From an uncultured Gemmatimonadales bacterium (GTDB lineage Bacteria; Gemmatimonadota; Gemmatimonadetes; Longimicrobiales; RSA9): a DNA stretch of 64,000 nucleotides. The position numbers and the translations under genes are program-made. Numbering within the stretch: position 1 is the first letter of the stretch; every line of letters starts with the position of its first letter. Location of the stretch: contig OY970192.1 of NCBI GenBank assembly GCA_963708135.1, positions 1,728,001-1,792,000 of the forward strand. Reading direction: 5' to 3'. The notes under the pieces are model-generated. The model was not told the origin of the DNA. It did not search any database and worked only from the letters and a program-made list of their open reading frames with translations. Below, piece by piece: positions 23,981-50,982 of this stretch.

Positions 23981-23990
23981 GGCGCCCTCC

Positions 23991-26728: not shown

Positions 26729-26789
26729 CGAGGCATCCTCGTCGGTGGTGGACTTCAGCATCTCGACCGCAAGTCTAGCGGAGCGGTCG

Positions 26790-26825
26790 TGAACGCTTCG
26801 TGAAGTCCGAATGAAGAGAGCTTCA
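26790..26825 (-). promoter_or_regulatory. Island regulon box upstream of tolC-cusB-cusA
   Basis: On + strand: TGAA at 26790, 26801, 26812 then CTTCA at 26821; minus-strand TAGACT at 26777-26772. Confidence 0.8.
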
Positions 26826-26973
26826 TTGTGCGAGCGCCGCTTGCCGGGGCGCAGGGCAAGCACGCGGGCACCACGGATGGAGTGGAGGGGCCGGCGCGCG
26901 GTCGGGCGCCGGCCCCTCCGGGCGTATGCCGGCCGCCCCGCAACCGGCCCGCGGCCAGGCTGCGACGCCGCCC

Positions 26974-27486
26974 TCAGACGGTCGTGAACGTGAAGATCAT
27001 GCCGTAGCTGCCGTTGGCGTTCTGCCACCCCGGTCCCATCATCCCGCTCCCCATGCCGCCGCCCATCATCTGCTGCGTGGCCCACTGCCCGCCCATCCGG
27101 TCGACACACTCGTCGTAGCCGATCTCGTCGCCGTCGGCGTCGAGCATCCCGCCGCCCAGGTGCAGCGTGTAGGCCGTGCCCGGCTTCAGCACGGCAGCGG
27201 GGGTGAACGTCAGCGTCTTACCGTCCGCCGACCACGTGTCCGTGCCGGGCACGACGGGACCCCTCACGTCCCCCTCGTGAAGCGCGACGTACATCTCCAT
27301 TCCCATCTGCATCGGACCGCTGAAGCTCACCACGATCGGCTGCGTGGGATCCACTCCGGTCGCGCCACCCGTGGGAATCACGTCCAGCACCTCCGTCTTG
27401 ACTGCCGGAGCCGTGCCGTCCTTCGCGCAGCCCGCGCCAATCAGCAGCGCGGCGCCCAGCACCAGCCCCCCGAATCGCTTCCTCAT
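26974..27486 (-). CDS. Ig-like (Big_5-type) lipoprotein with Met-rich segments
   Basis: Lipobox GAGC; P..GATGVDP..PIVVSFSGPM, LTFTP..LKPGTAY; MMGGGMGSGMMG. Confidence 0.8.
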   Translation of the reverse strand: MRKRFGGLVLGAALLIGAGCAKDGTAPAVKTEVLDVIPTGGATGVDPTQPIVVSFSGPMQMGMEMYVALHEGDVRGPVVPGTDTWSADGKTLTFTPAAVLKPGTAYTLHLGGGMLDADGDEIGYDECVDRMGGQWATQQMMGGGMGSGMMGPGWQNANGSYGMIFTFTTV

Positions 27487-27595
27487 GCTTCCCTCCCCGC
27501 CTTTCGCGGCACTCTCGTGCGCCGTCAGCGCGTCCGTTCTCGACCGGGCAGCCGCCGCGGAATCGGGACGCGGCTCCAAGATGACGTGCCAGCGG

Positions 27596-27631
27596 TGAAG
27601 CCAAGGTGAAAACGGGGTGAAGGAACCTTCA
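27596..27631 (-). promoter_or_regulatory. Island regulon box
   Basis: TGAA at 27596, 27607, 27618; TGAAG-gaac-CTTCA. Confidence 0.8.
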
Positions 27632-27651
27632 CAAGCGGCGCTCCCGCCCGC

Positions 27652-28599
27652 TCAATTCTTCACGCGCGCCGGCCAGTCGAAGGCGCGAACGGACACGTCG
27701 GGCACATCGCGGATCTCGAGCCGGAATCCCTCCGGCGGCGCCGCGAGCGCGAAGGCGATGTCCGCGTGGGCGTGGTGACCGGCGAGCGCACCCGCGCGGA
27801 TCGGCGCGAGCGCGCGCCCGCCCACGTGCAGGCGGACCACCTGCGCGAGGTCGACTCCGCTCAGCTCGACGGAATGCGTGTTCGCGGACAGGGCGAAGAT
27901 GAGCTGGCCCCCCTCCCAACGCGGCTGCACCTGGAGGGACACCCTGCCGGGGCTGAGCTGCGGCGCGTAGGATGTCTCCTGTACGGAACCTCGCCCGGCT
28001 TCCCCCGGCTGCGCGGCCGCGGCCGTGACGGCCGTCGCCACGCCCAGGATGACCACGGCGCCCGCGAACACGTAGGGCCAGGCGCGGTCAGCCGGCCACC
28101 GGACCGCGGTGGACAGGAACGAGGGCTGGGCGGGGTAGAGGCCGTGGCGGCGAATCTCCCCCAGCAGGAAGACCAGCCCCACCGCGCTCGACAGCACGCC
28201 CAGCAGCAGGAAGAGCTGCTGGTGGGCCGCGAGGAAGAGCGCGGCGCCCGCCAGTCCGACGAGCGGGAGCACGTCGGCCAGGTGGTGGGCGCAACAGGCG
28301 ATCATCGAGACGGCGCTCGTGCCGCCGGAGGCCGCGATCGCTCCCGTCCCGGCCGTCCGCTCGGCCCTGGCGGCGGCACGCGCGTAGGCGAACAGCCCTA
28401 CCTGCGTGGCGAAGCCGAGCACCAGCGCGGTCATCCAGGGCCACAGCTTGGCGAACTCCTGGACCGCGTGCGGAAACGAGTTGACGAGGCCGACCACGAG
28501 CACGTACAGCGCCAGCAGTCCCGCGCCGGCCGCTACGGCCCAGCCCAGGGCGGTGCGCCGCAGGCTCAGGTGCGTCTCCCACGAGATCGTCGCGGACAT
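27652..28599 (-). CDS. Membrane protein with CCAHH motif and C-terminal His-containing soluble domain
   Basis: SMIACCAHHLADVLP within the TM region; NTHSVEL and GHH in the tail; AAAGGAGG RBS. Confidence 0.8.
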   Translation of the reverse strand: MSATISWETHLSLRRTALGWAVAAGAGLLALYVLVVGLVNSFPHAVQEFAKLWPWMTALVLGFATQVGLFAYARAAARAERTAGTGAIAASGGTSAVSMIACCAHHLADVLPLVGLAGAALFLAAHQQLFLLLGVLSSAVGLVFLLGEIRRHGLYPAQPSFLSTAVRWPADRAWPYVFAGAVVILGVATAVTAAAAQPGEAGRGSVQETSYAPQLSPGRVSLQVQPRWEGGQLIFALSANTHSVELSGVDLAQVVRLHVGGRALAPIRAGALAGHHAHADIAFALAAPPEGFRLEIRDVPDVSVRAFDWPARVKN

Positions 28600-28691
28600 G
28601 GCTCCTGCCTCCTTTTCGTGTGCCGCTGCTCTTCCGCCGCCCGTCAGCCCCCCGGCATCGAGGGTGCGCTGCGAGGATAGCGCGGCGCCCA

Positions 28692-28727
28692 TGAAGTGGC
28701 CGTGAAGTGTGCGTGAAGGCCTCCTCA
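28692..28727 (-). promoter_or_regulatory. Island regulon box
   Basis: TGAAG at 28692, 28703, 28714; minus-strand TATCCT at 28679-28674. Confidence 0.8.
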
Positions 28728-28749
28728 GCGCAGGCCGCTCCCGGGCCGA

Positions 28750-28958
28750 AGGGTGGCGCCCCCGAGATCGTCGCGGTCCTCTACCTCGAGCACGGGGGGC
28801 ACGGCGCCACGGCGTCGGGGTACGCTGCCAGGGCGATCCAGTTCTACCTCGACCGCGAGCATGGCCGGTCGTTCCGGCCCGTCCCCGTTCCACGGGACCG
28901 CATTGAACGCGGGCTGCCCGTGGACTGGAGTTGGCTTCGCTCCCCGGTCACGCCGTAG
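28750..28958 (+). pseudogene. Probable 3' remnant of a penicillin-binding protein 2 (MrdA-like) gene
   Basis: PEIVAVLYLEHGGHGATASG resembles the PBP2 C-terminal PEIA..V.VEHGGHG segment; no upstream domain. Confidence 0.55.
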
Positions 28959-29008
28959 CGCACGCGTCGCCGGGGGAGGGCGCCGCGCGCGGAGGGAAAG
29001 GAGACTCC

Positions 29009-29149
29009 ATGGGCGAAACGCGCCCCAAACGACTCGTCGGGCTGATGCAGATCCTTTGGTATCGCTTCACACACCTGTTCGGACTGGACAGCTGTCCGGT
29101 GGAGCCGCCCAGCCCGCCCGGGCCGCCGTCGAAACCGAAGCGGCCCTGA
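29009..29149 (+). CDS. 46-aa hypothetical protein
   Basis: Strong AAAGGAG RBS; MGETRPKRLVGLMQILWYRFTHLFGLDSCPVEPP... Confidence 0.5.
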   Translation: MGETRPKRLVGLMQILWYRFTHLFGLDSCPVEPPSPPGPPSKPKRP

Positions 29150-29236
29150 CCGCGCGTCGGCCGGTCGGTTCAACGCCAGCCTCCTTCACGGCCGCGGCGG
29201 TGTACGACCTCCCAGCATTCCCTGCCCGCCCGCGCC

Positions 29237-29301
29237 CGGGCCCATCATGCCACGTCCGTCCGTGTTCGGGCCCATCATGCGACGTCCGGCCGTATCCGGG
29301 C
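29237..29301. repeat. 30-bp tandem repeat encoding MMGP units on the minus strand
   Basis: CGGGCCCATCATGC.ACGTCCG.CCGT x2. Confidence 0.7.
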
Positions 29302-29332
29302 GCCCGTCTTCCGCCTCACCTCGCGGAAAAGC

Positions 29333-29572
29333 CTAGCAGCAGCCGCCTCTGCGCCGCGGCCCTCCGGAAGATGCCCCGGCGGCCGGCTCCTCCCGCTCCG
29401 CCTCCGAAGCGGCATCGCCCCCGCCCTGCCTGGCGTCGGCGGAATGCTCGACGTGCCCCCCGCTTCCGTGCATGCCCTCCGCCACGGCCGTCTCTTCGCC
29501 GCCGACGCGCCGCATCAGGAAATACAGCGCGACAACGACGCCGATCGCGATGATCCACCCTGTCGTGCCCAT
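29333..29572 (-). CDS. Small single-TM protein with His-rich linker and C-terminal GGCC
   Basis: MGTTGWIIAIGVVVALYFLM...MHGSGGHVEH...RRGGCC*; GAGGAGG RBS. Confidence 0.75.
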   Translation of the reverse strand: MGTTGWIIAIGVVVALYFLMRRVGGEETAVAEGMHGSGGHVEHSADARQGGGDAASEAEREEPAAGASSGGPRRRGGCC

Positions 29573-29628
29573 CGATCCTCCTCGGGTTCGGTCTCCTGCC
29601 TTCGCCGGGGACGATGGGCACCGGGCCG

Positions 29629-29717
29629 TGAATCCAGCGTGAGATCGACATGAGCCGTGCTTCACGCGGCGTGCGGTCGGCTGAAGATATCTTCATGCGC
29701 GCTTCACACGGATTTCA
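29629..29717. promoter_or_regulatory. Two back-to-back regulon boxes (divergent promoter)
   Basis: 29629-29664 faces minus; 29682-29717 TGAAG-atat-CTTCA-N6-CTTCA-N6-TTTCA faces plus, with TAGGTT at 29730. Confidence 0.8.
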
Positions 29718-29827
29718 GGTGTAGATGACTAGGTTCGCGTCATGAGCGCCCGGTCGGAGGCGTCCGGTGCGTATCTCCCCAGGCATTCCGGGGGCGCCTC
29801 GATTCCTCTCACGGAAGGAGCAGGGCC

Positions 29828-29980
29828 ATGGCGGAGAAGGCTAAGGATCCGGTCTGCGGGATGCAGGTGGATCCCGGGAAGGCGGCGGGGACGAGTGTCT
29901 ACCAGGGCCGCACCTATTACTTCTGCAGCGCCGGGTGCAAGAAGAAGTTCGATGAACACCCCGGGAAGTTCACCGAGTAG
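29828..29980 (+). CDS. YHS-domain protein (putative copper chaperone); not in the ORF track
   Basis: [59 protein letters not shown]. Confidence 0.92.
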
Positions 29981-30066
29981 ACGGAAGCGCCCGGGCGGCG
30001 GCCGCCGCGCCAGACGCTGGCGGCGCCGCTCGGGCCGGGCAGGCACACGAGTCGAGGAGAACCCAG

Positions 30067-32532
<2,466 letters not shown>

Positions 32533-32585
32533 GCGGGCGCGGCCGTCGCGCGCCGCCGCGCGCAGCCACTCGAAAGGAGAACACC

Positions 32586-33227
32586 ATGTCCAGCAGCTCC
32601 CCGGGACGCACGGCCGTGCTGGCCGCCCTTGCCCTCCTGCTCGCCGCCTGCGGCGGCAGGCCCCCTGCCCAGGATCGCGGGGGCACCGTGCCGGCCGGCT
32701 CCACCGGCGCCGGGCCCGGCGGCATGATGGGCCGGGGCGGGACGGTGGGACGCGCCGGCACGACGGGTGCGATGATGGGCGGGACGACGGGCGGGACGAT
32801 GGGACGCGCCGGCATGACGGGCGGGATGATGGGACGCGCCGGCATGACGGGCGGGATGATGGGCGCCCGCGCCGACACCGCCGCCGCACCGCGCGCCCAG
32901 GCCGCCGCAGCCACGGCCCCCGACTGTCCGCCGATCGCCCAGCCGCTCGTGGACCAGGGCCGCGCCATCTTCACCGGTGGCGGCAACTGCTTCGCCTGCC
33001 ACGGCAGCAACGCCAAGGGCACCGCCCTGGCCCCCGACCTCACCGACCAGACCTGGCTCAACATCGACGGCTCCTACGCCGCCATTGCCGACCTCGTCCG
33101 CACCGGCGTGGCCAAGCCGAAGCAGCACCCCGCGCCCATGCCGCCCCTGGGCGGTGCCCAGCTCGACCAGGCGCAGGTCTGCGCGGTGGCCGCCTACGTC
33201 TACTCGCTCGGGCACAAGGGCGGGTAG
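32586..33227 (+). CDS. Monoheme c-type cytochrome lipoprotein with Met/Gly repeat region
   Basis: Lipobox LAAC; CFACH; PMPP distal Met candidate; GGMMGRAGMT repeats. Confidence 0.88.
   Translation: MSSSSPGRTAVLAALALLLAACGGRPPAQDRGGTVPAGSTGAGPGGMMGRGGTVGRAGTTGAMMGGTTGGTMGRAGMTGGMMGRAGMTGGMMGARADTAAAPRAQAAAATAPDCPPIAQPLVDQGRAIFTGGGNCFACHGSNAKGTALAPDLTDQTWLNIDGSYAAIADLVRTGVAKPKQHPAPMPPLGGAQLDQAQVCAVAAYVYSLGHKGG
32786..32863. repeat. In-frame 30-bp tandem repeat
   Basis: GACGGGCGGGAYGATGGGACGCGCCGGCAT, about 2.6 copies. Confidence 0.85.
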
Positions 33228-33268
33228 CAGGTCCGGCCGCCGGCCGCGGCGGCGCCGCGACCCGTTTC

Positions 33269-33496
33269 GCCGAGGATCGGCGCCACACACGGTGTTCAGC
33301 CCGCGCCGAAGGCGACGCCGACGCCGACGCTCCCGGCATAGCCGGCCGGCTTGCGGGCGAGGTGCGCCCGCAGCTCACGCTCCAGACCCGGAATCCGGAG
33401 CCCGCCGAGCATCTGAGCGCCGAACAGGATGAGCACCGTGCCGCCGATCCGCTGCAGCCACACGCCTTGCGTGCGCAGCAGCGACCCCACCAGTCC
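33269..33496 (-). pseudogene. ccdA: Internal ccdA (DsbD TM-like) fragment with nonsense mutation
   Basis: RIGGTVLILFG...GVAFGAG*TPCVAPILG; TGA at 33298-33296 replaces the W of GWTPC. Confidence 0.8.
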
Positions 33497-33691
33497 GCGA
33501 GGCCTTCCTCGCGACGGTGCGGGGCGAGAGTGCCGGGCTGGAGAAGCCGGCATGCGTGCTGGACCTGCTCGAGCGCCTTCCGTAGGTGAAGAAGAGCGGC
33601 TGAACGCGGCGCCGCGGACACGAGAGAGGGCGCGCCGGCGGGCAGCGTGCCGCCGGCGCTCTCGTGCGGTATGCCGTCGCCGCGCGCTCGG

Positions 33692-34079
33692 TCAGGCGCT
33701 TCCCCCGGCCGGCGCTGCATCCGGCGGGGCCGTGGCCGCGCCTTCACCGTCGGGCCCGACCGGCCGGGTCCACCGGCGGAACGCCACCGAGAGGAGCCCC
33801 GCTCCGCCCAGCAGCAGCGCCAGCGGGCCGCCCCAGACCAGCAGGTTCACGCCCCGCTTCGGCGGGTCCAGCAGAATCCACTCGCCGTACTTTGCTCACG
33901 AAATAGGCGATCACCTGTTGGTCCGTTTCGCCCCGCGCGAGGCGCTCCCGCACCACCGCGCGCATGTCCTTGGCCAGGCCGGATGGGGACTCCAGGATCG
34001 AGAGCTGCCGGCAGATCGGGCAGCGCAGCCGGCTGGCCACGCGCTCGACGGCCGCGGCGAGCAGGATGGACAGGATCAT
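33692..34079 (-). pseudogene. ccmH: CcmH/CycL with a +1 frameshift
   Basis: LRCPIC...YFVSK, then after an extra A near 33892, YGEWILLDPP..G.NLLVW. Confidence 0.8.
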
Positions 34080-34633
34080 GATGCACCTCCCTTCGCGCCC
34101 CTTGCGGGCGCCGCCCGCTCGCGGAGCGCCTCGATCTCCGTGTCCAGCAGCGAGTCGCTCACGGGCCCGATGTGCTTGTGTCGGACGATGCCGTCGGCAT
34201 CGATGAAGAAGGTCTCGGGGACCCCGTAGACGCCGTAGTTGATCGCCATCCTGCTCTTCGGGTCCACGAGCTGGGTCCAGCCCCCGCCGTTCTCGGCCAG
34301 GTAGGCGCGCGCGTTGGCCTTCGAGTCCTGGAAGATCACCCCCACCATCACCACGCCCCGGTCGCGGTAGCGCCGCCATGCGCGCACCAGCGACGCGTGC
34401 TCCTGGCGGCAGGCCAGGCACCAGGAAGCCCAGAAGTTCACCACCACCGCCCGGCCACGCAGCTCCGACAGGGCCACCGAATCAAGCGCGTCGAGGCGCG
34501 CGAGCCGGAACTCGGGCGCGGGCGAACCCACGAGCGGACTCGGGATGAGCGAGGCATCCTTCGTCAGCCCGTAGCCGAACAGTCCGATCAAGGCGACGAC
34601 GATCGCCATGCCGAGAACCTTCCACCGGGTCAT
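34076..34633 (-). CDS. CcmG/TlpA-like thiol-disulfide oxidoreductase
   Basis: NFWASWCLAC, YGVYGVPETFFID; AAAGGAGG RBS. Confidence 0.9.
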   Translation of the reverse strand: MTRWKVLGMAIVVALIGLFGYGLTKDASLIPSPLVGSPAPEFRLARLDALDSVALSELRGRAVVVNFWASWCLACRQEHASLVRAWRRYRDRGVVMVGVIFQDSKANARAYLAENGGGWTQLVDPKSRMAINYGVYGVPETFFIDADGIVRHKHIGPVSDSLLDTEIEALRERAAPARGAKGGAS

Positions 34634-35090
34634 GCCGCCACCTCCTTTGTTGCGGCGAGCGCCGGGGCGATCGTGGCCGCGCCCGCACGGCGCCGCGGCC
34701 CGGGCCACATCGCGACGAGGGCACCGCCGGCCAGGACCAGCGTGCCGATCCATAGCCACACCATGAGCGGCCGCACGACGAGGTGCAGCGTGGCCGAGGA
34801 GCCATCACGGGAGAACGCCAGCAGGTTGACGAAGAGGTCGTTCGCGGCCGTGCTCAGCACGGCCGGCGTCGGAACCGCCTCGTCCCGGTTCGGATAGTAG
34901 TTCTGGCGCGGCTCGACCCGCCCGATGAGGTGCCCGCGGCGCCTCACCTCGAGCGTGGTGCCGACGCCGACGCGGAACGCCTCGTCGCGCGCCCACACCT
35001 CGTCCAGCCGCAGCGCGTACAGCCCGATGCGCACCGTCTGCCCCGGCGCCAAGCGTGACCTCCGTCTCCTGCTTCGAGTTCCACGAAGAA
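34630..35090 (-). pseudogene. ccmF: 3' remnant of ccmF (heme lyase)
   Basis: ETEVTL/APGQTV (frameshifted), P...YY, TPAV, DLFVNL, PLMVWLWIG; the 5' majority of the gene is absent. Confidence 0.75.
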
Positions 35091-35194
35091 GGCTCGTTAA
35101 GGCTGGTTCACGCCGACCGCGCGTGAAGCGCCCCTCGCGCTCGAGCTCATCCCTGTCGGCCGCGCCGCAGAACCGCCGCCCCGGCCGCGCCGGA

Positions 35195-35230
35195 TGAGCC
35201 GTTCTTCACCGCGGTTTCAGGCCCGCTTCA
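35195..35230 (+). promoter_or_regulatory. Island regulon box upstream of the Spy/CpxP-like gene
   Basis: TGAGC-cgtt-CTTCA-N6-TTTCA-N6-CTTCA; TATGCT at 35243. Confidence 0.8.
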
Positions 35231-35321
35231 TGGGTGGTCCGCTATGCTTCGGGCGAACGAGAAGTCCGGTGCGGCCCACCAAGGTGGCGGCGCCGCGAAC
35301 CTGTGAAATCGGGAGGCGAGA

Positions 35322-35984
35322 ATGAAGCGGATGATCGGAGGAACGGCGGTCGCCTTGTTGCTGGCGGCGCTGCCCGTGGCGGCACAGGCTCAGCACGCCC
35401 ACCGGGCGCACGGCATGCAACCGGGCGGCCCCGGCGGTCGCGCCATGATGCAGGCCGGCGGCGGCATGATGGGCGGCGGGATGATGGGCGGCGGGATGAT
35501 GAGCATGATGGGCCAGGGGATGGGTGCCGGGATGGGGATCGGCCACGGCGTCCCGGGACCCGCCGCGCTCCTCGAGATGCGCGATGCGCTCGAGCTCACG
35601 CCGGAGCAGGTGACCCGGCTGGAGGCAATCCGCAAGACGACGGACGGCGCCGTAAGGAAGATGCGGCAGCAGGCACAGGAAGCGGCGACGCGCGCGAGCA
35701 AGCTGCGCGCGGCAACGTCGCCTGACCCGGACGCGTACGCCGCCGCGATCCGCGAGGCGGGCGCACCGCTGGTCGAGGCGCACGCGCTCACGGCCCGCAC
35801 GGCGCTGCAGGCACGCCAGCTCCTCACGGCCGAGCAGCAGAAGACGCTTGCAGCCGGGACGCAGGCCGGCGTGGCGATGTGTCGCGCCATGATGGGTGGG
35901 ATGGGTGGCGGCATGACGGGTGGCGGCGCGGCCGCCATGCACCAGGCGACGCCGTCGGGCGCGGCCCGCTCGACGCTCGACTGA
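35322..35984 (+). CDS. Spy/CpxP-family periplasmic protein, Met-rich
   Basis: Signal peptide; LELTPEQ and LLTAEQ motifs; GGMM repeats. Confidence 0.85.
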   Translation: MKRMIGGTAVALLLAALPVAAQAQHAHRAHGMQPGGPGGRAMMQAGGGMMGGGMMGGGMMSMMGQGMGAGMGIGHGVPGPAALLEMRDALELTPEQVTRLEAIRKTTDGAVRKMRQQAQEAATRASKLRAATSPDPDAYAAAIREAGAPLVEAHALTARTALQARQLLTAEQQKTLAAGTQAGVAMCRAMMGGMGGGMTGGGAAAMHQATPSGAARSTLD

Positions 35985-36092
35985 CTCACCGGCGCGCAGA
36001 CCAGACGGCCGGCAGCTCCGCATGAGGGGGCTACCGGCCGTTCGTGCGGTTCCGGCCGGTCCGCGGGGCGCCCGCGCCGGCCCTGATACGGC

Positions 36093-36389
36093 TCAGACCG
36101 GGTTCATGCGCGAGTGCTGCAGCACCTGCATCTTCTGCACGAACTCCTGCTCGGTCAGCTCACCGTCGGCGAACCGTCCGCGCAGCCGTTCCTCCGCGTC
36201 CAGCCGCTCCTGCGCCCAGCGGTGCGTCTCGCGCGTGTCCTCGTGCATGCGCCAGAAGGCCCAGAGGAGCAGCGCGATACACACGATCCAGAACGTCCAC
36301 CACGCCCAGTGCATCCCCATGAAGAGTCCCTGCCGGTGCCACGGCATGTCGTCCATCATCGCCTGGCCGGCGCCGAGCAGCGTGTCCAT
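36093..36389 (-). CDS. SHOCT-domain membrane protein
   Basis: MGMHWAWW TM segment; LRGRFADGELTEQEF. Confidence 0.82.
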   Translation of the reverse strand: MDTLLGAGQAMMDDMPWHRQGLFMGMHWAWWTFWIVCIALLLWAFWRMHEDTRETHRWAQERLDAEERLRGRFADGELTEQEFVQKMQVLQHSRMNPV

Positions 36390-36400
36390 TGCCTTCCTCC

Positions 36401-36742
36401 TCAAACGAGGGCGGCGAGGTTCTCGTCGCCCGTGCGGATCTTGACCACCCGTTCCACCTCCGAGATGCAGATGATGCCGTCGCCCTGGTGCCCCGTGGTG
36501 GCGGTCCGCCGAACCACGTCGATCAGCTCGTCCACACGCTCGTCGGGGACGATCACCTCGATCTTCGTCTTCTCCGTGTACGCGCCGCCCTCCTCGAAGG
36601 AGAGGCGGTAGTGCTCGGGGTCGACGCCGCTGCCGAGCGCGTGCACGTGGCAGATGAAGAGGCGCGGCACACTGGCCACCCCGAGCGCCTCGACCAGCGC
36701 GTCCACGCGCTCCCTCCGCACGATCATCTTGAGCAGCTTCAT
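36401..36742 (-). CDS. Non-canonical P-II family protein
   Basis: MKLLKMIVR, KIEVIV, TGHQGDGII, VKIRTGD; overlaps the kinase stop codon. Confidence 0.88.
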   Translation of the reverse strand: MKLLKMIVRRERVDALVEALGVASVPRLFICHVHALGSGVDPEHYRLSFEEGGAYTEKTKIEVIVPDERVDELIDVVRRTATTGHQGDGIICISEVERVVKIRTGDENLAALV

Positions 36743-38298
36743 GAGTGGGTCTCCAGTCGGGTGAGCGCCGCGGCGGCCGCGAGGCGGATCTCGCCCGCTC
36801 CACCCCCGACGGCCGCCGGCGTGCCGTCCGCGATGGTGCGGTCCCGGGCGCCGTCGGCCGCGGCGGATTCGCCCTCCTCTGCCGCCTCTGCCGCGACCGG
36901 GAACGAGACCGTGAACACCGCCCCACCGGCGGCCCGGTTCGCGGCCGTGATCGACGCCTCGTGAGCCTGTGCGATCGCTTGCGCGATCGAGAGTCCCAGC
37001 CCCGTGCCACCGACCATCCCGGCCGGCGTGCGACTCTCGTCCGCACGGAAGAAGCGGTCGAAGAGCCGTCCAATCTGGGCGTCGGGCAGGCCCGGTCCCG
37101 TATCGGCGACGCGGAGCAGCGCGCCGCCGGCGCCCGCTTCGACCTCGACCACGACCTCCCCTCCCGCGGGCGTGTACTTGATCGCGTTCTCGATCAGGTT
37201 GTAGGCGAGCCGCTCGACCAGCTCCGGGTCCGTGCATACGAGCGCGCTGCCCCGGCTCCGGAAGGTGAGGCGCACCTCTTCGCCGTGCGCCCGCGCCTGC
37301 AGGCGCTTGCAGGTGTGCGCCACCGGCGTCGCCAGCTCTCCGTCGCGCATCCGGGGTCGCAACACGCCCGCGTCCGCCCGCGCCAACGTGAGCAGGTCCT
37401 CCGCCGTGCGCCCCAGTCGGTGCGCCTCCTCGAGCGCGCTCGCGATCACGCGGCGGTACTCCACCGGCGCACGCTCGCGGCGCAACGCGAGCTCCAGCTC
37501 GCCCTGCAGGGCGGTGAGCGGCGAGCGCAGCTCGTGGCTCGCATCCGCCGTGAAGCGGCGCTGCGCATCGAAGGCCCGGTCCAGCCGCTCGAGCATCGTG
37601 TTGAGCACCTGCACGAGCCGCTGGTACTCCTGCGTGCCCGCGTACGCCTGGATGCGCCGCCCCAGCGTGTGTGCGCCGATCGCCTCCGACTGGTCGATGA
37701 TCTCGTCCACCGGCCGGACCACCCGCGCCGCCAGCCACCAGCTGCCGGCGAAGCTGCCCGCGCCCGCCACCAGGATCAGCGAGATGAGCAGCAGCCGCAG
37801 CCGCTCCAGGGTGAGGTTGCGCGCCACCAGCGGCGCCGCCACCTCCAGCACGTGGTGCGCGTGCGCCGGGCCCAGCCGCACCAGCGGGTAATAGAGCGAC
37901 CGCACGGGGATGTCCCCGAGACGCTGCTCCGCCGAGACCAGTCGTCCCTCCATCGCCTCGCGCAGCGCCGCCCGGTCGAGCGGCAGGTCGCGCGTCAGAT
38001 AGCGGGTCCGCAGCATACTCCGGCCGCCCGCCGTCCACACCTGCGCGTAGCGGTTCAGGTCCAGCACGGACGCCGCCTCGGCGGGGGTGAGCGCCCACTC
38101 GTGGAACTCCATCTTCGCCGAGCCGGGTTGCGTCAGCGACGCCGCCTGGATCGAGGCCAGGTTGATCAGGCTGGCGTTGATCTGCCGGTCCAGCGAGGCG
38201 CGCATCGCCATGTACGTCACGCCGCCCATAGCGAAGAGCGCGACGCCTACGCCCGCGGTCACGCGCGCGGCGAGCTGGAACCGGAAGGAGCGGATCAC
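36739..38298 (-). CDS. Sensor histidine kinase (CusS/CzcS-like, HAMP-HisKA-HATPase)
   Basis: FTADASHELRSPL, NLIENAIKY, DTGPG, LFDRFFR, GTGLGL; GTG start overlapping the regulator stop. Confidence 0.93.
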   Translation of the reverse strand: MIRSFRFQLAARVTAGVGVALFAMGGVTYMAMRASLDRQINASLINLASIQAASLTQPGSAKMEFHEWALTPAEAASVLDLNRYAQVWTAGGRSMLRTRYLTRDLPLDRAALREAMEGRLVSAEQRLGDIPVRSLYYPLVRLGPAHAHHVLEVAAPLVARNLTLERLRLLLISLILVAGAGSFAGSWWLAARVVRPVDEIIDQSEAIGAHTLGRRIQAYAGTQEYQRLVQVLNTMLERLDRAFDAQRRFTADASHELRSPLTALQGELELALRRERAPVEYRRVIASALEEAHRLGRTAEDLLTLARADAGVLRPRMRDGELATPVAHTCKRLQARAHGEEVRLTFRSRGSALVCTDPELVERLAYNLIENAIKYTPAGGEVVVEVEAGAGGALLRVADTGPGLPDAQIGRLFDRFFRADESRTPAGMVGGTGLGLSIAQAIAQAHEASITAANRAAGGAVFTVSFPVAAEAAEEGESAAADGARDRTIADGTPAAVGGGAGEIRLAAAAALTRLETHS

Positions 38299-38975
38299 GC
38301 CTCCGGCTCCTGGCGCAGGATGTAGCCGACGCCCCGCAGCGTGTGCAGCAGGGGCGGCCGCCCGCCGTCCCGCAGCTTCCGCCGCAGGTTGGCCACATGC
38401 ACGTCCACCACGTTCGACATCGGGTCGAAGTGCAGGTCCCACACCTTCTCGAGTAGCTCCGTGCGCCGCACCACCTCCTCCGGGTGCAGCAGGAAGTACT
38501 CGAGTAGCTCGAACTCCTTGGCCGTCAGGTCGAGCAGCTCGCCGCCGCGCCGGACCACATGCTTCAGCCGGTCCATCTCGATGTCCGCGTACAGCAGCCG
38601 CGCGAGCCGGGCGGCCCCGCCGCGCCGGATCAGCGCGCGCATCCGCGCCAGCAGCTCGTCGAAGTTGAACGGCTTCGTGACGTAGTCGTCGGCTCCCGCG
38701 TTCAGCCCCTCGATAATGTCGTCGGTCGCATCCCGCGCCGTGAGCATCAGGATCGGAACCGTCCTGCCGCTCGTGCGCAGCTCGTGGACGATCTGGTAGC
38801 CGTTCTTGCCCGGCAGCATCACGTCCACGAGAAGGCTGTCGTAGTCGTAGACGTGCGCGTTCAGCGCGCCCTCCGTCCCGTCGTTCGACACGTCCACCTC
38901 GTAGCCCTCCTCGCGCAGCCCCCGGGCGAGAAAGCTAGCCACCTTCCGATCGTCTTCGATGACGAGGACCCGCAT
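38295..38975 (-). CDS. OmpR-family response regulator (CusR/CzcR-like)
   Basis: VIEDD, DVMLP, MLTA, GADDYVTKPF, SNVVDVHV, HTLRGVGY; AAGGAGGT RBS. Confidence 0.95.
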   Translation of the reverse strand: MRVLVIEDDRKVASFLARGLREEGYEVDVSNDGTEGALNAHVYDYDSLLVDVMLPGKNGYQIVHELRTSGRTVPILMLTARDATDDIIEGLNAGADDYVTKPFNFDELLARMRALIRRGGAARLARLLYADIEMDRLKHVVRRGGELLDLTAKEFELLEYFLLHPEEVVRRTELLEKVWDLHFDPMSNVVDVHVANLRRKLRDGGRPPLLHTLRGVGYILRQEPEA

Positions 38976-39023
38976 GCTCACCTCCTTGATCGTTGCCCCG
39001 CGTCGAATGTCGCGCGGGGCGCA

Positions 39024-39059
39024 TGAAGTCGAGGTGAATCCGGCGTGAAGAAGCGTTCA
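39024..39059 (-). promoter_or_regulatory. Regulon box upstream of the response regulator (possible autoregulation)
   Basis: TGAA at 39024, 39035, 39046; TGAAG-aagc-GTTCA. Confidence 0.8.
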
Positions 39060-39123
39060 TGGAAGCGCTCACCCGCGTCTCGCTCGCCCGCCTGCTGCGG
39101 GCCGAAGGCCGGCGGCGGCGGCG

Positions 39124-39588
39124 TTACGCCTGCTTGCTCACGACGATCTCGTTGCCCTGTACCTTGACTATATAGGGCGCGAGCGGCCGGGGCGGTGGTC
39201 CCGAGACGTTCTTGCCGTTCAGGTCGTAGTGACCGTTGTGGCAGGCGCACCAGATGTCGGAGTGCTCGCTGCCGTATTGCACGATGCAGCCGAGATGCGT
39301 GCAGATGGCGGTGAAGGCCCGCAGCTCGCCCTGCGGGGTCCGGATCAGGATCCCCGGCTTGTTGCCGAACCTGAAGATCTGCCCCGAGTTGAGTGGCACG
39401 TCCGAAGGCTTGACGCTGAGCACGACCGAGTTGACAGCCGACTCGCCCGACTCCGGCGGGTCCAGGTACTCCGCCACCGGGTATGAGATGGCGATGAACA
39501 TGCCCCCGAGGGTCGTACCCAGCAGCCAGTCCAGGAAGCGCTTTCGGTTCACTCCGCCGCTCCCGGGCTCGCCGGGCGGTGCCGTCAT
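39124..39588 (-). CDS. Rieske [2Fe-2S] protein (PetC/QcrA-like)
   Basis: NRKRFL Tat-like leader plus TM; CTHLGC and CACHNG; GPPPRPL. Confidence 0.92.
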   Translation of the reverse strand: MTAPPGEPGSGGVNRKRFLDWLLGTTLGGMFIAISYPVAEYLDPPESGESAVNSVVLSVKPSDVPLNSGQIFRFGNKPGILIRTPQGELRAFTAICTHLGCIVQYGSEHSDIWCACHNGHYDLNGKNVSGPPPRPLAPYIVKVQGNEIVVSKQA

Positions 39589-39663
39589 TGCTCCTCTCTC
39601 CTTTCCGCAGCCTGCGCCTGGCCGGGCACCGTGGTCGGGGCGGGGCGGCCAACCCCTCCCCTC

Positions 39664-40584
39664 TCAGGCCGAGCGCAGGGCGCGCGTGGGTGCGCCGCAC
39701 CTGGCGCAGTAGCGGTCGTCCGGCGAGAGCGACTCCCCGCATTGCGTACAGAAGCGTGCCGCGCCCGTTTCCGGCCGGCTCGCGCTTTCCCGTGCGCCCA
39801 CATCCGCCCTGCCGCGTACGATCCGCGGCCGGACGAGCGGCCAGAGCCCGAAGCCCGCGGACACCAGAGCCACGAGGGCCAGGATCGCGATCGCGGTCCT
39901 GTGGCCTCCGGGCGCGGCGGGTGGGGTGGCCGATGACGTGGCATCACCGGGGGATGCGATGGAGGGCTGGTCATCCGTCTTGCGGTAGGCCACGGTCACC
40001 GCCTTCCGCGCGCCCGCCTTCACGCCGTCGTATTGCAGGACGTAGTAGTTGAAGCCGTTCCGGTCCTGGCTCACCTGTTCCGTGAGCGGCGAGATCGTGA
40101 AGTCCTGCGCCCGCTGCGGCTCCTGCACCGCCACCACGAGCGTATCCATGACGAACGGCGAGAGGACGGTGTAGGTGAAGCGGCGCTGCGCCGCGCCCCC
40201 CAGCGGGTTGTAGTAGAACTCCATATAGAAGTCCGGCACCGTCAGGCGGTACGTGAGCTCGACCAGCCCGTCCGCGCGCTTGTGCGTCTGATACGTCGCG
40301 TGGATGTGCTGCCCGTTCGCGTCCACCCCTCCCACCATGTGCACGTGTGCGCCGTCCGGGATCACGAACGTGAAATCGGTCGGCGTCTTTCCCGGCGCCA
40401 CCAGGCTCCCCTTGTAGATCAGGAGCACCCGCGGCTCGTCGTACTCGGGCCAGATCTCCACGTCCATGTACGAGATCACCGGCGCCGGATCGGCCCGCGA
40501 TGGCCGGGGCGTCCCCGCGACGGCCGCGGTGCCGAGCGGCGGGAGCGTACCCGCCAGCAGAGCGGCAAGGATCGGTGTGAGCAT
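39664..40584 (-). CDS. Exported domain + TM + C-terminal zinc-ribbon protein
   Basis: IWPEYDEPRVL; FCTQCG...YCARCG. Confidence 0.8.
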   Translation of the reverse strand: MLTPILAALLAGTLPPLGTAAVAGTPRPSRADPAPVISYMDVEIWPEYDEPRVLLIYKGSLVAPGKTPTDFTFVIPDGAHVHMVGGVDANGQHIHATYQTHKRADGLVELTYRLTVPDFYMEFYYNPLGGAAQRRFTYTVLSPFVMDTLVVAVQEPQRAQDFTISPLTEQVSQDRNGFNYYVLQYDGVKAGARKAVTVAYRKTDDQPSIASPGDATSSATPPAAPGGHRTAIAILALVALVSAGFGLWPLVRPRIVRGRADVGARESASRPETGAARFCTQCGESLSPDDRYCARCGAPTRALRSA

Positions 40585-40645
40585 GCGGCTGTCCCTCGTC
40601 GGATGAGTCCCGCTCGTCCTCGAATCCAGGATGCGCAACGCGGCC

Positions 40646-40760
40646 TGAAGCGGGCATGAAATCCGGGTTAAGCCGCGTTCATGCGGCGATCCGCAAGCGC
40701 GAGCCGGCCGGACTCCTGCCATCGTGAAGTCGACTTCATGTCCACTTCACCATGGCTTCA
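40646..40760. promoter_or_regulatory. Two back-to-back regulon boxes (divergent promoter)
   Basis: 40646-40681 faces minus; 40725-40760 TGAAG-tcga-CTTCA-tgtcca-CTTCA-ccatgg-CTTCA faces plus, with TATCCT at 40773. Confidence 0.85.
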
Positions 40761-40821
40761 CCACGGCAGGAGTATCCTTGCGGGGTGTTCAGAGTGTCCC
40801 GCCAGAACAGGAGAGTGAACA

Positions 40822-41289
40822 GTGGGCAAGAACCGGAAACAGAGCGCCGGGCGTGGCGGCGGCAGGCGGCGGAAGTGGACGTCGCTCCTGCCCTGGGGCA
40901 TCACCGCGGCGGCGCTGCTCGCGATCCTCGTCCTCGCGGCGCAGGGACGTGGGCATGGCACAGCCAGCCACCATCCGACCCCGCGCAGCGATGCGGCGAC
41001 GACGCAGGCGCGCAAGATCGTGCCGGCCTCCGCCTACGCCGCGTATCCCCGCATCCAGGAGACCTACCGCGAGGCGGCGCTGGTGCCGCAGGTGCTGGAT
41101 GGCATCTACTGCTACTGCGAGTGCAAGGAGCACATGGGACACTACTCGCTGCTGGACTGCTACAAGAGCGACCACGCGGCGGGCTGCGACGTGTGTCTCT
41201 CCGAGGGTGAGCTGGCCTACAAGATGACGCAGCAGGGCAAGTCGCTCGACCAGATCAGGGCCGCCGTGGACCGCCTATACGGCGCATGA
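40822..41289 (+). CDS. PCYCGC-motif family protein
   Basis: YCYCEC...HYSLLDCY...HAAGCDVC after a TM anchor. Confidence 0.85.
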   Translation: MGKNRKQSAGRGGGRRRKWTSLLPWGITAAALLAILVLAAQGRGHGTASHHPTPRSDAATTQARKIVPASAYAAYPRIQETYREAALVPQVLDGIYCYCECKEHMGHYSLLDCYKSDHAAGCDVCLSEGELAYKMTQQGKSLDQIRAAVDRLYGA

Positions 41290-41741
41290 GAACGCGGGCC
41301 ATGCGGTCCTGCCCGCACCTGGCTGCCGGCGCGGCCGCCGTGCTCGCGCTGCTCCTGGCCGCCTGCAACTCCGGGCCACGGGAGCGAAGGAACGCGGTCG
41401 GCCGGCAGGTCGCGCTCGAGGAGCTCTCCCGCATGAATACCCGCATGGCCCCCGATGCCTCGCTGGCCGGCGTCAGCGCACAGGGCGTGAGCGGCATTGT
41501 GCCGCTCCGCCCCCGCCCGCTCCGGGACCAGGCCGATTCCAGCGACTTCCGTCACTTCGTGCACCGCTGCAACGCCTGCCACGCCGCGCCCGACCCCTCC
41601 ATGCACACTGCCGGCGAGTGGGCGGTCGTGATCAGCCGGATGAAGGACAACATGCGCCTCGCCGGCCTGCTCCCCCTCCGGCCACAACAGGAGCGGGCGA
41701 TCATGGAGTTCCTTACCCGGGGCGCCGGGCTTGCCCCCTGA
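41286..41741 (+). CDS. Monoheme c-type cytochrome lipoprotein
   Basis: LAAC lipobox; CNACH; W..V..RM..NM; ATGA overlap. Confidence 0.82.
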   Translation: MRTRAMRSCPHLAAGAAAVLALLLAACNSGPRERRNAVGRQVALEELSRMNTRMAPDASLAGVSAQGVSGIVPLRPRPLRDQADSSDFRHFVHRCNACHAAPDPSMHTAGEWAVVISRMKDNMRLAGLLPLRPQQERAIMEFLTRGAGLAP

Positions 41742-41810
41742 GCCGGGGCCCGGCGCCACTGTCTGGGGACGGGCCGGGAGTTGCTGCGCCGCGCGGGCTC
41801 GGAGTCCCGT

Positions 41811-43061
41811 TCAGGCGCTCGCGCACAGGCACGTGTGGCTCGAGCCGGCCAATGTGCAGGCCCCGGCGGCGCACTCGCACGCCAGGCGCAACACCGTCGG
41901 TACCGCGTTCGCCCGCGGCACCGACGAGTGGCCGGCCCCTCGAACCCGCTTCCATTCGGCGCGCCACCCGCGCAGGAGGGAAGCATCGTGCGCATTCCCT
42001 CCATTCACCACCGCAGCCAACAACGCGTACGCCCAGCGCCGGCGCCCTGCGAGCTCGATCAGGTCGGAGGCCAGGCTCCCGCCGTAGAGCACGCGGCGGA
42101 CACGTCGCGCGACCGCGAATTCCCGCTCCAGGTTGGACCTGGCGATGGCCGGATAGCGCGCGAAGGTGCCGTCGCGCTCGAACGCCTCCGCAAGGAAGTC
42201 CGCCGAGCGGATCGCGTTCTGGATGCCTTCGCCAGTGGCGGGATCGGCGAAGCCCGCAGCATCCCCCAGCAGGGCGTAGTCCCGCTGAGCCAGAAGCGCA
42301 TAGTACGGGAGCGGGATCGCGGCGGTGCCGATCACGGCACCGGCACGCGCGCCGGCCGTGCAGCCGCACCGCCCCAGTGCGTCCCAGTAGGCATCCACCT
42401 CCGCGTCCAACCGACGCCGGTTCCACGTGCGCGGCGCCACGCCCACCCCGATCGAACGGTGAGCCGGGCGGGGAAATTCCCAGGCGTAGCCGTGCATGCC
42501 CGGAAAGAAGCGGAGGCCGATGGCCTCCGGCGTGGTTCCGGCGCCCGGGGCGTACGCCACGCGCGCTGGCGCCAGCTCGATCCTCAGCTCCGGTGCGACG
42601 ACGGCCCGGACGCGGCTCGCGGCGCCGTCGGCGCCAACGAGCAGGCGAACGTGGGCAACCCCGCCATCGCTGGTCTCCAGACACCACCCGTCGGAATGCC
42701 GGAGGATCCGACGCACGCCCATGGGCTCGAAGCTGGCGCCGGCCCTCCGTGCACGGGCGAGCTGCCAGGCACCAAGCTCACGTCTGGAGAGGACGTACAG
42801 GGGTCGCTCGAGCGGCACCCGGACCTCCGTTGCCCGTGTCTCCAGGCGGACCGCTTCGATGCGCCGCGCCCGTGAACAGAGCTCGCCGAGATCCGGCACG
42901 TTCTCCAGCGCGGCCGCCGTCAGTCCACCTCCGCACGGCTTCTCCCAAGGCGCATGGGGATCGAACAGGACCACCTCCGCACCCGCCAGTGCGAGGCGCT
43001 CGGCCGCCCTGGCGCCCGCCGGACCGGCGCCCACGATCCCGATCTGCCCATTGATACGCAT
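41811..43061 (-). CDS. Geranylgeranyl reductase-family FAD oxidoreductase
   Basis: IVGAGPAG, EKPCGGG, VGADGA.S, GYAWEFP, GDAAGFADPATGEGI. Confidence 0.9.
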   Translation of the reverse strand: MRINGQIGIVGAGPAGARAAERLALAGAEVVLFDPHAPWEKPCGGGLTAAALENVPDLGELCSRARRIEAVRLETRATEVRVPLERPLYVLSRRELGAWQLARARRAGASFEPMGVRRILRHSDGWCLETSDGGVAHVRLLVGADGAASRVRAVVAPELRIELAPARVAYAPGAGTTPEAIGLRFFPGMHGYAWEFPRPAHRSIGVGVAPRTWNRRRLDAEVDAYWDALGRCGCTAGARAGAVIGTAAIPLPYYALLAQRDYALLGDAAGFADPATGEGIQNAIRSADFLAEAFERDGTFARYPAIARSNLEREFAVARRVRRVLYGGSLASDLIELAGRRRWAYALLAAVVNGGNAHDASLLRGWRAEWKRVRGAGHSSVPRANAVPTVLRLACECAAGACTLAGSSHTCLCASA

Positions 43062-43121
43062 GTCGGATGTCTCCGTTCTGGTCCGAGCTGGACTTCCTGC
43101 CGGAATCTGTTGCGGTTGCGG

Positions 43122-43157
43122 TGAATGGCGCGTGAGATCGACATGAAGAAGCGCCAA
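43122..43157 (-). promoter_or_regulatory. Partial regulon box
   Basis: TGAA 43122, TGAG 43133, TGAAG 43144; minus-strand CAGATT at 43109-43104; inverted half is poor. Confidence 0.6.
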
Positions 43158-43601
43158 TGCCTCCCGGGGCCCCGAGTCGCCCCTCCATGGAGGGCCTTTG
43201 CGGGGCACACAGCGGGGCAATGATGGGCCCGTATCGAAGGCTCCGCCTGAGTCCACTTGCCGTTACGGAAAGCCCGGTCCCCAGCGCGACCACCAGAGCA
43301 CCGGGAAGAGCACGAAGAACGTGACGAGCCGCTGCCGTGGAACAGCACCAGTCCCCCACTCGCGCGCGCGGCCGACGAGAACACGTCCGCGCCTCTCGAG
43401 GGGTGTGATGTTGATCTCCGGTCGCTTCATCGACATTCTTCTTTCGGAACTCCGCAATGCGGGGCCGGCGACGCGGATCTACGCTCGCGTTCAGCAGCCG
43501 CGCTACGCCGCCAAAGGATGGCGCGCCGCGCGTGAAACCCGCGTGGAATCGTGGTCAATGGCATTTCGTGGTGGCTGGCCACTCTCAACCTGGGTTTGTC
43601 C

Positions 43602-44417
43602 GTGAACACCCCCATCCAGGGCGCTACCGCCCTCTGGCTCGCGCTGGCGATCCCGTCCGCGGCGTTTGCCGCCTACGACCTGGCCCGCAACCAGCCGATC
43701 GCCACCGTCATGCGCTGGGGCTGGGTCCTCGTGATCCTCTATACCGGCCCCGTCGGACTCGTCATCTACCTGCTCGCCTGTCGTGAACCGCTGGCGGGCA
43801 CACACGAGGCCTACGTCGCCCCGCGCTGGAAGCAGGCCGTCGGCTCGACGATCCACTGCGTGGCCGGGGACGCCACCGGAGTCATCCTCGGCGCCGTGGT
43901 AGGCTTCTTCCTCCATCTGAGCCGGATCGGCGACGTCGCCTTCGAGTACGCCGCCGGGTTCGCCTTCGGGCTCCTCATCTTTCAGGCGCTGTTCAGTCGC
44001 ATCATGATGGGCGGCAGCTACTGGAGCGGAGTGCGCAGGACGATCCTCCCCGAATGGCTATCGATGAATGCCCTGATGGGGGGCATGATCCCGGTGATGG
44101 TCCTCCTCATGGACGACGGCTCGGGGCCGACAGGGCTCCGCTTCTGGGGCGTCATGTCGCTGGCCATCTTCGTCGGCGCCCTGGTGGCCTACCCGGTCAA
44201 CCTCTGGCTCGTGGCGCGCGGGCTGAAGCACGGCATGGGGACGGTGCGCGTGCTCGGGCAGGGAGGGCAGCCCCCGGCCGCCGCAGGCGTCGCCTCACAC
44301 GCGGGGCACGGCATGAGCACGCGGCCGCGACCAGGCCGGCGGGAAACCGCTCTCGTCCTGCTGGCCAGCCTCTCGGCGCTCGCGGTCGGGCTCGCCATCG
44401 CGTGGGGAATCGGCTGA
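43602..44417 (+). CDS. DUF4396-family membrane protein
   Basis: LYTGP.GL, WKQAVGSTIHCVAGDATG, AYPVNLWLV..GLKHGM; start uncertain (43551 or 43602). Confidence 0.85.
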   Translation: MNTPIQGATALWLALAIPSAAFAAYDLARNQPIATVMRWGWVLVILYTGPVGLVIYLLACREPLAGTHEAYVAPRWKQAVGSTIHCVAGDATGVILGAVVGFFLHLSRIGDVAFEYAAGFAFGLLIFQALFSRIMMGGSYWSGVRRTILPEWLSMNALMGGMIPVMVLLMDDGSGPTGLRFWGVMSLAIFVGALVAYPVNLWLVARGLKHGMGTVRVLGQGGQPPAAAGVASHAGHGMSTRPRPGRRETALVLLASLSALAVGLAIAWGIG

Positions 44418-44533
44418 TGCGCGCGCCCCGGCTGACCTGGCTGCGCTCGTGAGGGCGACGCAGCCCGGGGAGCCGAGTCTCAGCTCTCGTTGGTGAATCA
44501 GCGTTCATAAAGGAGCGCTTCGCGAGCTGGACA

Positions 44534-44569
44534 TGAAGGCAGACTCACGCCGGTTTCAGTCTCGCTTCA
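44534..44569 (+). promoter_or_regulatory. Regulon box upstream of the AhpD-like gene
   Basis: TGAAG-gcag-ACTCA-N6-TTTCA-N6-CTTCA. Confidence 0.7.
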
Positions 44570-46213: not shown

Positions 46214-46215
46214 CG

Positions 46216-46458: not shown

Positions 46459-46500
46459 GATGCTCTCCGTTGAACGAAGTGATGCGCGGATACTCCGCGC

Positions 46501-49176: not shown

Positions 49177-49263
49177 TCGTGGTCTCCTCGTCCAGGATGA
49201 GGCCGCGCCGGCGCGGACGCTGTGACGCGCATCACGGGCGCCTCGCCCGTCCCTGGCCCGCAC

Positions 49264-50982
<1,719 letters not shown>

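Follow-up and report, generated by a model that had tools for sequence, protein, structure and literature searches.

A 36-bp element recurs throughout a copper island, ahead of nearly all of its groups of genes, in the genome of an uncultured Gemmatimonadales bacterium (assembly GCA_963708135.1, contig OY970192.1, positions 1,728,001 to 1,792,000; this whole stretch of 64,000 nucleotides is referred to as the window). The element consists of four half-sites, one inverted and three direct. The direct ones are spaced by 11 bp, and the first of them also forms the right arm of a palindrome with the consensus TGAAG-N4-CTTCA, as opposed to the TGACA-N4-TGTCA letters of CusR-type boxes. Eleven copies had been listed in an initial annotation; every coordinate and strand was confirmed, and all ten of the −10 hexamers given with them match. 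An extra twelfth copy was also found.

On the minus strand, box 1 (26790-26825; −10 TAGACT, 26772-26777) points at cusC, and is followed by box 2 (27596-27631; CATCTT, 27578-27583) and box 3 (28692-28727; TATCCT, 28674-28679). Box 4 (29629-29664, minus; CATCGT, 29611-29616) and box 5 (29682-29717, plus; TAGGTT, 29730-29735) are divergent partners, as are box 8 (40646-40681, minus; CATCCT, 40628-40633) and box 9 (40725-40760, plus; TATCCT, 40773-40778). Between these pairs lie box 6 (35195-35230, plus; TATGCT, 35243-35248) and box 7 (39024-39059, minus; GACATT, 39006-39011), the latter being the predicted promoter of the island's own regulator gene. Box 10 (43122-43157, minus; CAGATT, 43104-43109) has kept the three direct half-sites and lost the inverted one, and box 11 (44534-44569, plus) is strong in itself and displays TGGTTT at the −10 position. 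The additional copy, box 12 (43533-43568, minus), is weak and decayed, with CATCCT at the correct distance (43515-43520).

The pattern TGAR-N6-YTCA-N7-YTCA-N7-TTCA, with at most one mismatch allowed, was matched 10 times in the window versus 0 times in 100 shuffles. A scoring matrix was trained on ten window sites, the high scores of which are thus by construction, and boxes 10 and 12 scored 23.9 and 20.6. In the matrix scan of the 5.45-Mb genome, 11 sites scored at least 25, these being the ten training sites and one strong copy outside the window, G000:C1:1636194 (plus), located 1.5 kb from a paralogue of the regulator. The best match outside the island and the paralogue locus scored 17.5, and reversed-genome controls gave 0 sites at a score of at least 18. 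Strong sites are accordingly confined to these two loci.

The element was also sought around relatives of the regulator, the best 80 of 519 confirmed; all but 2 records among these 80 are from Gemmatimonadota. The box recurred in 70 of the 80 loci (n = 152 sites), and reversed controls yielded 2 sites versus 166 at a lower threshold. An nAnnnT hexamer was found 12 nt downstream of 140 of the 152 boxes, and no other spacing between 8 and 16 nt had it in more than 6; the −10 columns lay outside the scoring matrix and were hence not selected by the search. The spacer letters are variable, and the constant parts are the phased half-sites and two −10 columns. Only 1 of 180 sites in 87 loci falls within a called gene, as called by a hexamer scorer. 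If a 7-nt gap after the −10 is assumed, the palindrome is by arithmetic centred at about −53.5, with half-sites three and four flanking the −35 position. Since the −10 is conserved at 12 nt, the predicted role of the elements as promoters is supported.

The regulator gene behind box 7 (38295-38975, minus) encodes a protein of the OmpR/PhoB family, with PF00072 and PF00486 above cut-off and the phospho-acceptor D51; N196 in its recognition helix occupies the position of PhoB R201. In a 48-row tree with a midpoint root and five proteobacterial rows only, CusR, SilR and PcoR form a group (99/95) separate from a 41-row Gemmatimonadota group (97/88). The regulator is likely to work like CusR, with family scores below the cut-offs and a position outside the CusR group. 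The gene next to it encodes a membrane histidine kinase with a periplasmic sensor (36739-38298, minus), in which M63, H146 and H149 are present in 100% and H66 in 90% of 62 sequences. The structure model displays a PDC-type periplasmic fold (pLDDT 88), for which WalK is the best fold match (Z 10.3) and a Foldseek search gave no match at E 0.001. These Met and His residues are candidate metal ligands. The same gene run contains a P-II-like protein (36401-36742) and a SHOCT membrane protein (36093-36389, both minus); in the window both come after the kinase gene, and in several relatives they are located behind cusA or a box.

The box was found together with this clade of regulators. In 40 closer relatives the exact pattern was present in 8 of 13 genomes with the clade versus 0 of 27 without it, and in the remaining five of the 13 matrix sites adjoin the regulator. 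Among 300 further-spread genomes the corresponding numbers were 35 of 124 and 1 of 176 (reversed pattern: 2 genomes), and in family f2 they were 6 of 9 and 0 of 39. The single exact match in a genome devoid of the regulator (G043) has no −10 and was treated as chance. Because of this co-occurrence, an OmpR/PhoB-family regulator of this clade is likely to be the reader of the box. The genome encodes a second one, 73% identical and with a near-identical recognition helix. The suggestion that 38295-38975 activates all of the promoters therefore stands as far as the clade is concerned, but this protein need not be their sole reader.

R201 of PhoB contacts a guanine. For regulators with Arg at the aligned position, 14 of 14 sites, which come from a single clade and include near-duplicates, have G as the second base in the right arm of the palindrome; with Asn, His, Lys or Gln there, G was present in 0 of 141 sites. 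This base was unconstrained by the site search. CusR, SilR and PcoR also combine Arg at this position with G in the box, and the Asn-type outgroup regulators L116 and L117 have T. The simple rule that a basic residue reads G fails, as T was present in 7 sites of Lys-type regulators.

Box 1 faces a cusCBA-type Cu(I)/Ag(I) efflux operon (20645-26761, minus), identified with Pfam and NCBIfam and composed of cusC (25331-26761), cusB (23991-25334) and cusA (20645-23980). The Met triad of CusA (M579/M629/M678) aligns with M573/M623/M672 of SilA, and of 34 cusC homologues in related loci 29 come immediately after a box. Behind box 5 are the genes of a YHS-like protein (29828-29980), CopA (30109-32532) and a cytochrome c (32616-33227, all plus). 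CopA is a Cu(I)-type P1B ATPase (TIGR01511, 607.7 bits versus a cut-off of 397; CPC, YN and MxxSS motifs), the homologues of which directly follow a box in 11 of 29 cases. Box 9 precedes a PCYCGC protein (40822-41289) and a small CxxCH cytochrome (41286-41741, both plus); of 13 PCYCGC homologues 12 come immediately after a box, and the cytochrome was in the same run in 6 of 6 cases. The PCYCGC family is described as unassigned in the available text of PMC13068155. A PCYCGC paralogue elsewhere in this genome (L234, G000:C1:3939022-3942500) sits directly before a CsoR-family repressor gene and then a second copA, an arrangement that is, judged by gene order, an independent link of PCYCGC to copper. 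For a Big_5-domain, Met-rich putative lipoprotein (26974-27486, minus), 8 of 15 homologues are immediately preceded by a box. Over the related loci, the first gene behind a box was cusC (n = 31), PCYCGC (n = 12), a P-type ATPase (n = 10), the regulator (n = 10), a multicopper oxidase (n = 9), Big_5 (n = 8) or DUF411 (n = 6), and more rarely CopC, HMA or a cupredoxin-type gene. The copper core proposed for the island is thus borne out, the predicted targets of the box being genes of copper/silver efflux and detoxification. Comparison across these loci supports cusC, PCYCGC and its cytochrome partner as conserved predicted targets, and Big_5 and copA as frequent ones.

Other members hold up to a lesser degree or lack named relatives. 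A 315-aa membrane protein with CCxHH and a His-rich tail (27652-28599, minus) had no Pfam or NCBIfam match, and an Atlas search gave unnamed clusters only; its relatives were first behind a box 3 times. A 79-aa single-helix membrane protein, His-containing and with a GGCC end (29333-29572, minus; inferred gene call), had no Pfam match. A short open reading frame (ORF) nearby (about 29008-29150, plus) displays a strong ribosome-binding site, no preceding box and no relative in the fetched loci. The LTXXQ (Spy/CpxP-like) periplasmic protein (35322-35984, plus) contains 23 Met in 220 aa. A zinc-ribbon membrane protein (39664-40584, minus) lies behind box 8, and the Atlas search returned unnamed clusters only. 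The cytochrome-c maturation remnant (33296-35052, minus) consists of a C-terminal piece of ccmF, an intact dsbE, a frameshifted ccmH and a piece of ccdA; it has no box of its own, and its intact counterparts in L076 sit behind boxes.

Three genes that had been assigned to the metal response fared poorly. The lone Rieske protein (39124-39552, minus) is a duplicate of the one encoded next to cytochrome b at G000:C1:1314314 (73% identity), and its relatives in 14 family loci have no box within 1.5 kb. The geranylgeranyl-reductase-like FAD enzyme (41811-43061, minus) scored below family cut-offs, follows the partial box 10 with no palindrome, and gave no match when 72 family genomes were searched at E 1e-60. 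The AhpD/CMD gene (44706-45158, plus) follows box 11, which is devoid of a −10. From these features the Rieske protein, the reductase and AhpD are weakly supported as targets. A broken YgaP-like gene behind box 12 (about 43343-43430) matches, at 72%, the first 26 aa of an intact gene in L019 that has a strong box in front. The island is turning over, and some of its members may be passengers. A DUF4396 membrane protein (43551-44417), of uncertain start, overlaps the decayed site and has no box in its own direction. Outside the box span, at 45168-52671, are genes for DUF2249 proteins, a COX1-like membrane protein, a SUF-associated protein, EfeU/Ftr1, YtfE/RIC and a SufR-like regulator, which look like a nitric oxide (NO) and iron-sulphur stress unit under other control. 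Long overlapping ORFs in the window were discarded on hexamer scores.

The same box is attached to other sensors. A total of 167 loci with a regulator at least 58% identical were sorted by their kinases. The window's class, with the periplasmic sensor, comprised 75 loci, of which 63 keep all four ligands (MHHH), 55 contain copper genes and 65 have the box. A second class of 71 loci (L091, L152, L240, L242, L244 and 66 more) has a GAF kinase upstream, with copper genes in 1 and the box in 68. Two loci had both kinase types and degenerate ligands, and 19 were unclassed. The genes of the GAF class follow in a row, a DosT-like haem GAF kinase (for instance L152:4750-5943), the regulator (66% identical to that of the window) and a sensor-less kinase, which in the inspected loci has no periplasmic domain; cbb3 and ba3-type oxidase, globin, Usp and CBS genes surround them. 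The GAF domain matches mycobacterial DosT/DosS (PDB 2vzw, E 1.7e-45), and the proximal His was kept in 73 of 73 GAF hits, this being the haem ligand of the mycobacterial domain in the available text of PMC4082495. Usp, CBS, Hsp20 or oxidase subunit I was found, with profiles seeded mostly from the GAF class, in 49 of the 71 loci versus 13 of the 75, and oxidase subunit I in 18 versus 0. The GAF class contained 77 boxes, 47 of them before the regulator; 23 other first genes were Usp (n = 10), YgaP-like (n = 3), Cu-oxidase domains (n = 2), a flavodoxin, a kinase and six unnamed, and CBS, Hsp20, dodecin, hydrogenase and multihaem genes lie behind additional boxes. The exact pattern is present in 27 genomes of family f4, and a search for the Met/His sensor at E 1e-15 gave no match in 26 of them. 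Oxygen sensing in this class would follow from the domain and the gene content. The assumption that the motif by itself places a gene in the metal response fails here, as the same box precedes Usp, CBS and Hsp20 genes beside a haem kinase. Read from these contexts, the box is a mark of the regulator and not of the signal, which would be set by the attached kinase.

For the island itself, we consider it probable that the box is a four-half-site promoter operator bound by the OmpR-family regulator and responsive to Cu(I)/Ag(I) through the Met/His kinase. The kinase would sense Cu(I)/Ag(I) with its periplasmic domain and phosphorylate the regulator, which would then bind the 36-bp boxes and switch on the efflux genes and their neighbours. 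Copper or silver is the likely signal because of the CusA Met triad, the Cu-type CopA and the conserved Met/His sensor, the box alone being no proof of it. Several observations weigh against this. Regulator and kinase have TIGR01387 and TIGR01386 as their best families, but score 231 and 239.8 bits versus cut-offs of 279.2 and 292.55. The sensor fold superposes on CusS with Z 8.3 (rmsd 3.0, 118 aligned), a match equalled by unrelated PDC sensors, and the sensor alignment searched against PDB sequences gave no match. The second copA-csoR-PCYCGC locus has no box, and the box of the paralogue locus in this genome precedes a Usp gene. The box serves non-copper genes in the 71 GAF-class loci, and Usp or CBS genes occur in 13 of the 75 loci of the window's own class as well. 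The genomes compared are kin, so the co-occurrence counts overstate independence, and absence from genomes devoid of the regulator is based on the exact pattern, not on the matrix scan.

The same regulator and boxes could also operate with a kinase that senses another metal, or the periplasmic redox or disulphide state, copper efflux then being one part of the output. Three of the four conserved ligands are His, the sensor is not recognisable as a relative of CusS/CopS, and the predicted targets include the Spy-like protein, DsbE, cytochromes, the Rieske protein and AhpD. Against these stand the invariant Met, the CusA triad and the CopA motifs, and the multicopper oxidase, CopC, HMA and DUF411 genes behind the boxes of relatives, and we regard such a signal as improbable.

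Slightly less probable still is that low oxygen or NO is an additional, or the main, signal of the island, received by way of the paralogous regulator or of cross-talk with the genome's haem-GAF kinase. The paralogous pair (G000:C1:1634055-1637824, L001:9056-12825) is 73% and 61% identical to that of the island, with MHHH kept in both cognate kinases; its one box precedes the Usp gene and a Big_5 gene, and upstream are ArsR, thioredoxin and cupin genes. Such an input would account for the presence of Rieske, cytochrome and ccm genes in the island; family f4 couples the same box and regulator to a DosT-like kinase, and this genome has both a GAF kinase and the Usp gene behind the paralogue's box. 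However, that kinase (G000:C1:1339812-1341404) is the neighbour of a sigma-54 activator and is 290 kb away from both regulators, neither regulator has an adjacent GAF kinase, and no box was found at the cbb3 oxidase operon of this genome. The region G000:C1:1305000-1341500, which ends in the PAS-GAF kinase beside the sigma-54 activator, encodes a large multihaem cytochrome, Rieske, cytochrome b and ccm proteins, and is split by an IS21-like element.

A different reader of the box, such as CsoR, a MerR-type regulator, an ECF sigma factor or a PhoP/CreB-like global regulator with TTCA repeats among its sites, is quite unlikely. Such half-sites at 11 bp are common, as in GTTCACC-N4-GTTCACC of Streptomyces coelicolor PhoP (available text of PMC4832192) and the TGAAGATTT repeats of Corynebacterium glutamicum CopR (available text of PMC3140484), and the genome holds other OmpR regulators and a CsoR; yet the box follows the regulator clade, its letters shift with the recognition helix, the CsoR locus has no box and no phosphate genes are among the listed targets. 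That the element is a dispersed repeat, a mobile end or a small RNA, as its short palindrome and clustered copies might suggest, has next to no probability and is already contradicted by the unconserved spacer letters around phased half-sites and −10, by an orientation that tracks the next gene and by the lack of an Rfam match in window positions 20000-50000.

If the copper-responsive operator is accepted for the island, the evolutionary history of the module may be depicted as follows. Copper was probably the ancestral signal, since the GAF class forms one branch (support 95 in a quick tree, the base of which is without resolution) and in the outgroups the regulators L116 and L117 are accompanied by His-rich sensors, TTCA-type boxes and copper genes. 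One genetic switch would then probably have been rewired from copper to oxygen. An Arg-type sister clade (L115, L118, L137, L151) displays a G-shifted box, before Flp pilin/tad clusters (n = 4) and RCC1-repeat genes (n = 2), and a CHASE3 kinase in the one case examined; no sister-type box was found in this genome at one mismatch. We lean, by a small degree, towards a plug-in module in which one operator geometry and one regulator family serve the Gemmatimonadota, with all of the following steps. The ancestor would have had a His/Met sensor in control of a copper regulon. Family f4 would have lost the periplasmic sensor of the kinase and gained a DosT-like haem kinase upstream, the unchanged box now driving a DosR-like low-oxygen regulon. 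The sister clade would owe the shift of its box towards TGTCA, and the position of this box in front of Flp pilus genes, to a CHASE3 kinase together with the replacement of Asn by Arg in the recognition helix. The same four-site, 12-nt geometry would also underlie the Escherichia coli cusC, sil and pco promoters, CusR-type activators working as head-to-head-plus-tandem tetramers.

The box is a highly specific, genome-scannable marker of a regulon in a phylum with almost no described regulation, and it ties unstudied proteins such as PCYCGC to copper. Its strong copies reveal a fixed promoter geometry that is faint in the E. coli cusC, sil and pco promoters. If true, the history above would represent a natural swap of input, oxygen in place of copper, in which neither the operator nor the DNA-binding helix changed, and in the sister clade a one-residue specificity switch in addition. 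The box is also a warning that a cop-box-like motif alone is no proof of copper control.

The E. coli K-12 cusC promoter reads TGACA-N4-TGTCA-N6-TGTCA-N6-AATCA-N12-TAAAGT. In nine proteobacterial loci 14 strict TGACA-type palindromes were found, 8 of them with a third half-site at +11 and 7 also with nAnnnT at 12 nt (other spacers at most 1); the 7 are cusC, silC, silE, pcoE and three Acinetobacter promoters, and are not independent. These enterobacterial and Acinetobacter boxes are at L018:3014-3067, L119:14894 and 17165, L120:12101 and in L121. Ralstonia copA and the copA of pMOL30 fit with looser letters, the pMOL30 site being below threshold and picked by eye. The Caulobacter and Burkholderia loci contained neither a strict nor a relaxed cop box, and the Alteromonas site has no −10 at 12 nt, and apparently one at 11. 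With the CusR, SilR, PcoR and CopR boxes (PMC12428095, PMC11195947, available text) the element shares the 5-4-5 palindrome, the in-phase third half-site 11 bp on, the 12 nt from the fourth half-site position to the −10, cusCBA-type efflux and divergent promoters. It differs in its TGAAG/CTTCA letters, in its 12 sites in one island and in the fourth half-site, which is strong here and degenerate in the seven proteobacterial cases. In the accessible parts of the same two papers the boxes are described as a palindrome, or with extra half-sites without fixed spacing, and Pseudomonas putida CopR protects several TGACA-like half-sites (PMC12428095).

In the AgrR box of Cupriavidus metallidurans, too, direct repeats lie in phase with an inverted repeat and activation requires both kinds; the −35 is poor, and class II activation has been proposed (available text of PMC7380067). 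Its direct repeats are imperfect, present at some operators and up- or downstream, whereas the two downstream repeats of the present element have a constant number and phase, and other letters; the 12-nt spacing may already be visible in the AgrR sequences published there. The C. glutamicum CopRS, compared by its box only (TGAAGATTT-N2-TGAAGATTT; PMC3140484, available text), is likewise a copper two-component system with TGAAG at an 11-bp period, but its single site lacks a palindrome and consists of two direct repeats. PhoB, PhoP, GlnR and PmrA share the 11-bp tandem half-sites replacing the −35 and form activation complexes of two to six protomers, all of them tandem and with no inverted first protomer in the available text (PMC11825685, PMC10570014, PMC4832192). 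In E. coli phoA the distance from the last TGTCA to the −10 is 11, not 12, nt. The comparison with PhoB-like tandem repeats made in the initial annotation is supported as to the regulator family and the 11-bp period, but the architecture is that of CusR, CopR and AgrR promoters and not only PhoB-like. The GAF class alone resembles DosS/DosT-DosR (PMC4082495, available text) in its haem GAF domain with the His and in Hsp20, CBS, Usp and CtpF-like ATPase genes nearby or behind boxes; it differs in its HisKA core, its OmpR-family partner and its cop-box-type operator, DosR being NarL-type. No paper on a Gemmatimonadota regulon of this kind was found in a literature search with most subscription journals outside its coverage. 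The box is thus most likely a lineage-specific version of the known CusR/CopR/AgrR kind. What the sequences compared add is the fixed geometry in common with enterobacterial promoters, the covariation of helix and box letters, and one box and regulator apparently serving different sensors and regulons.

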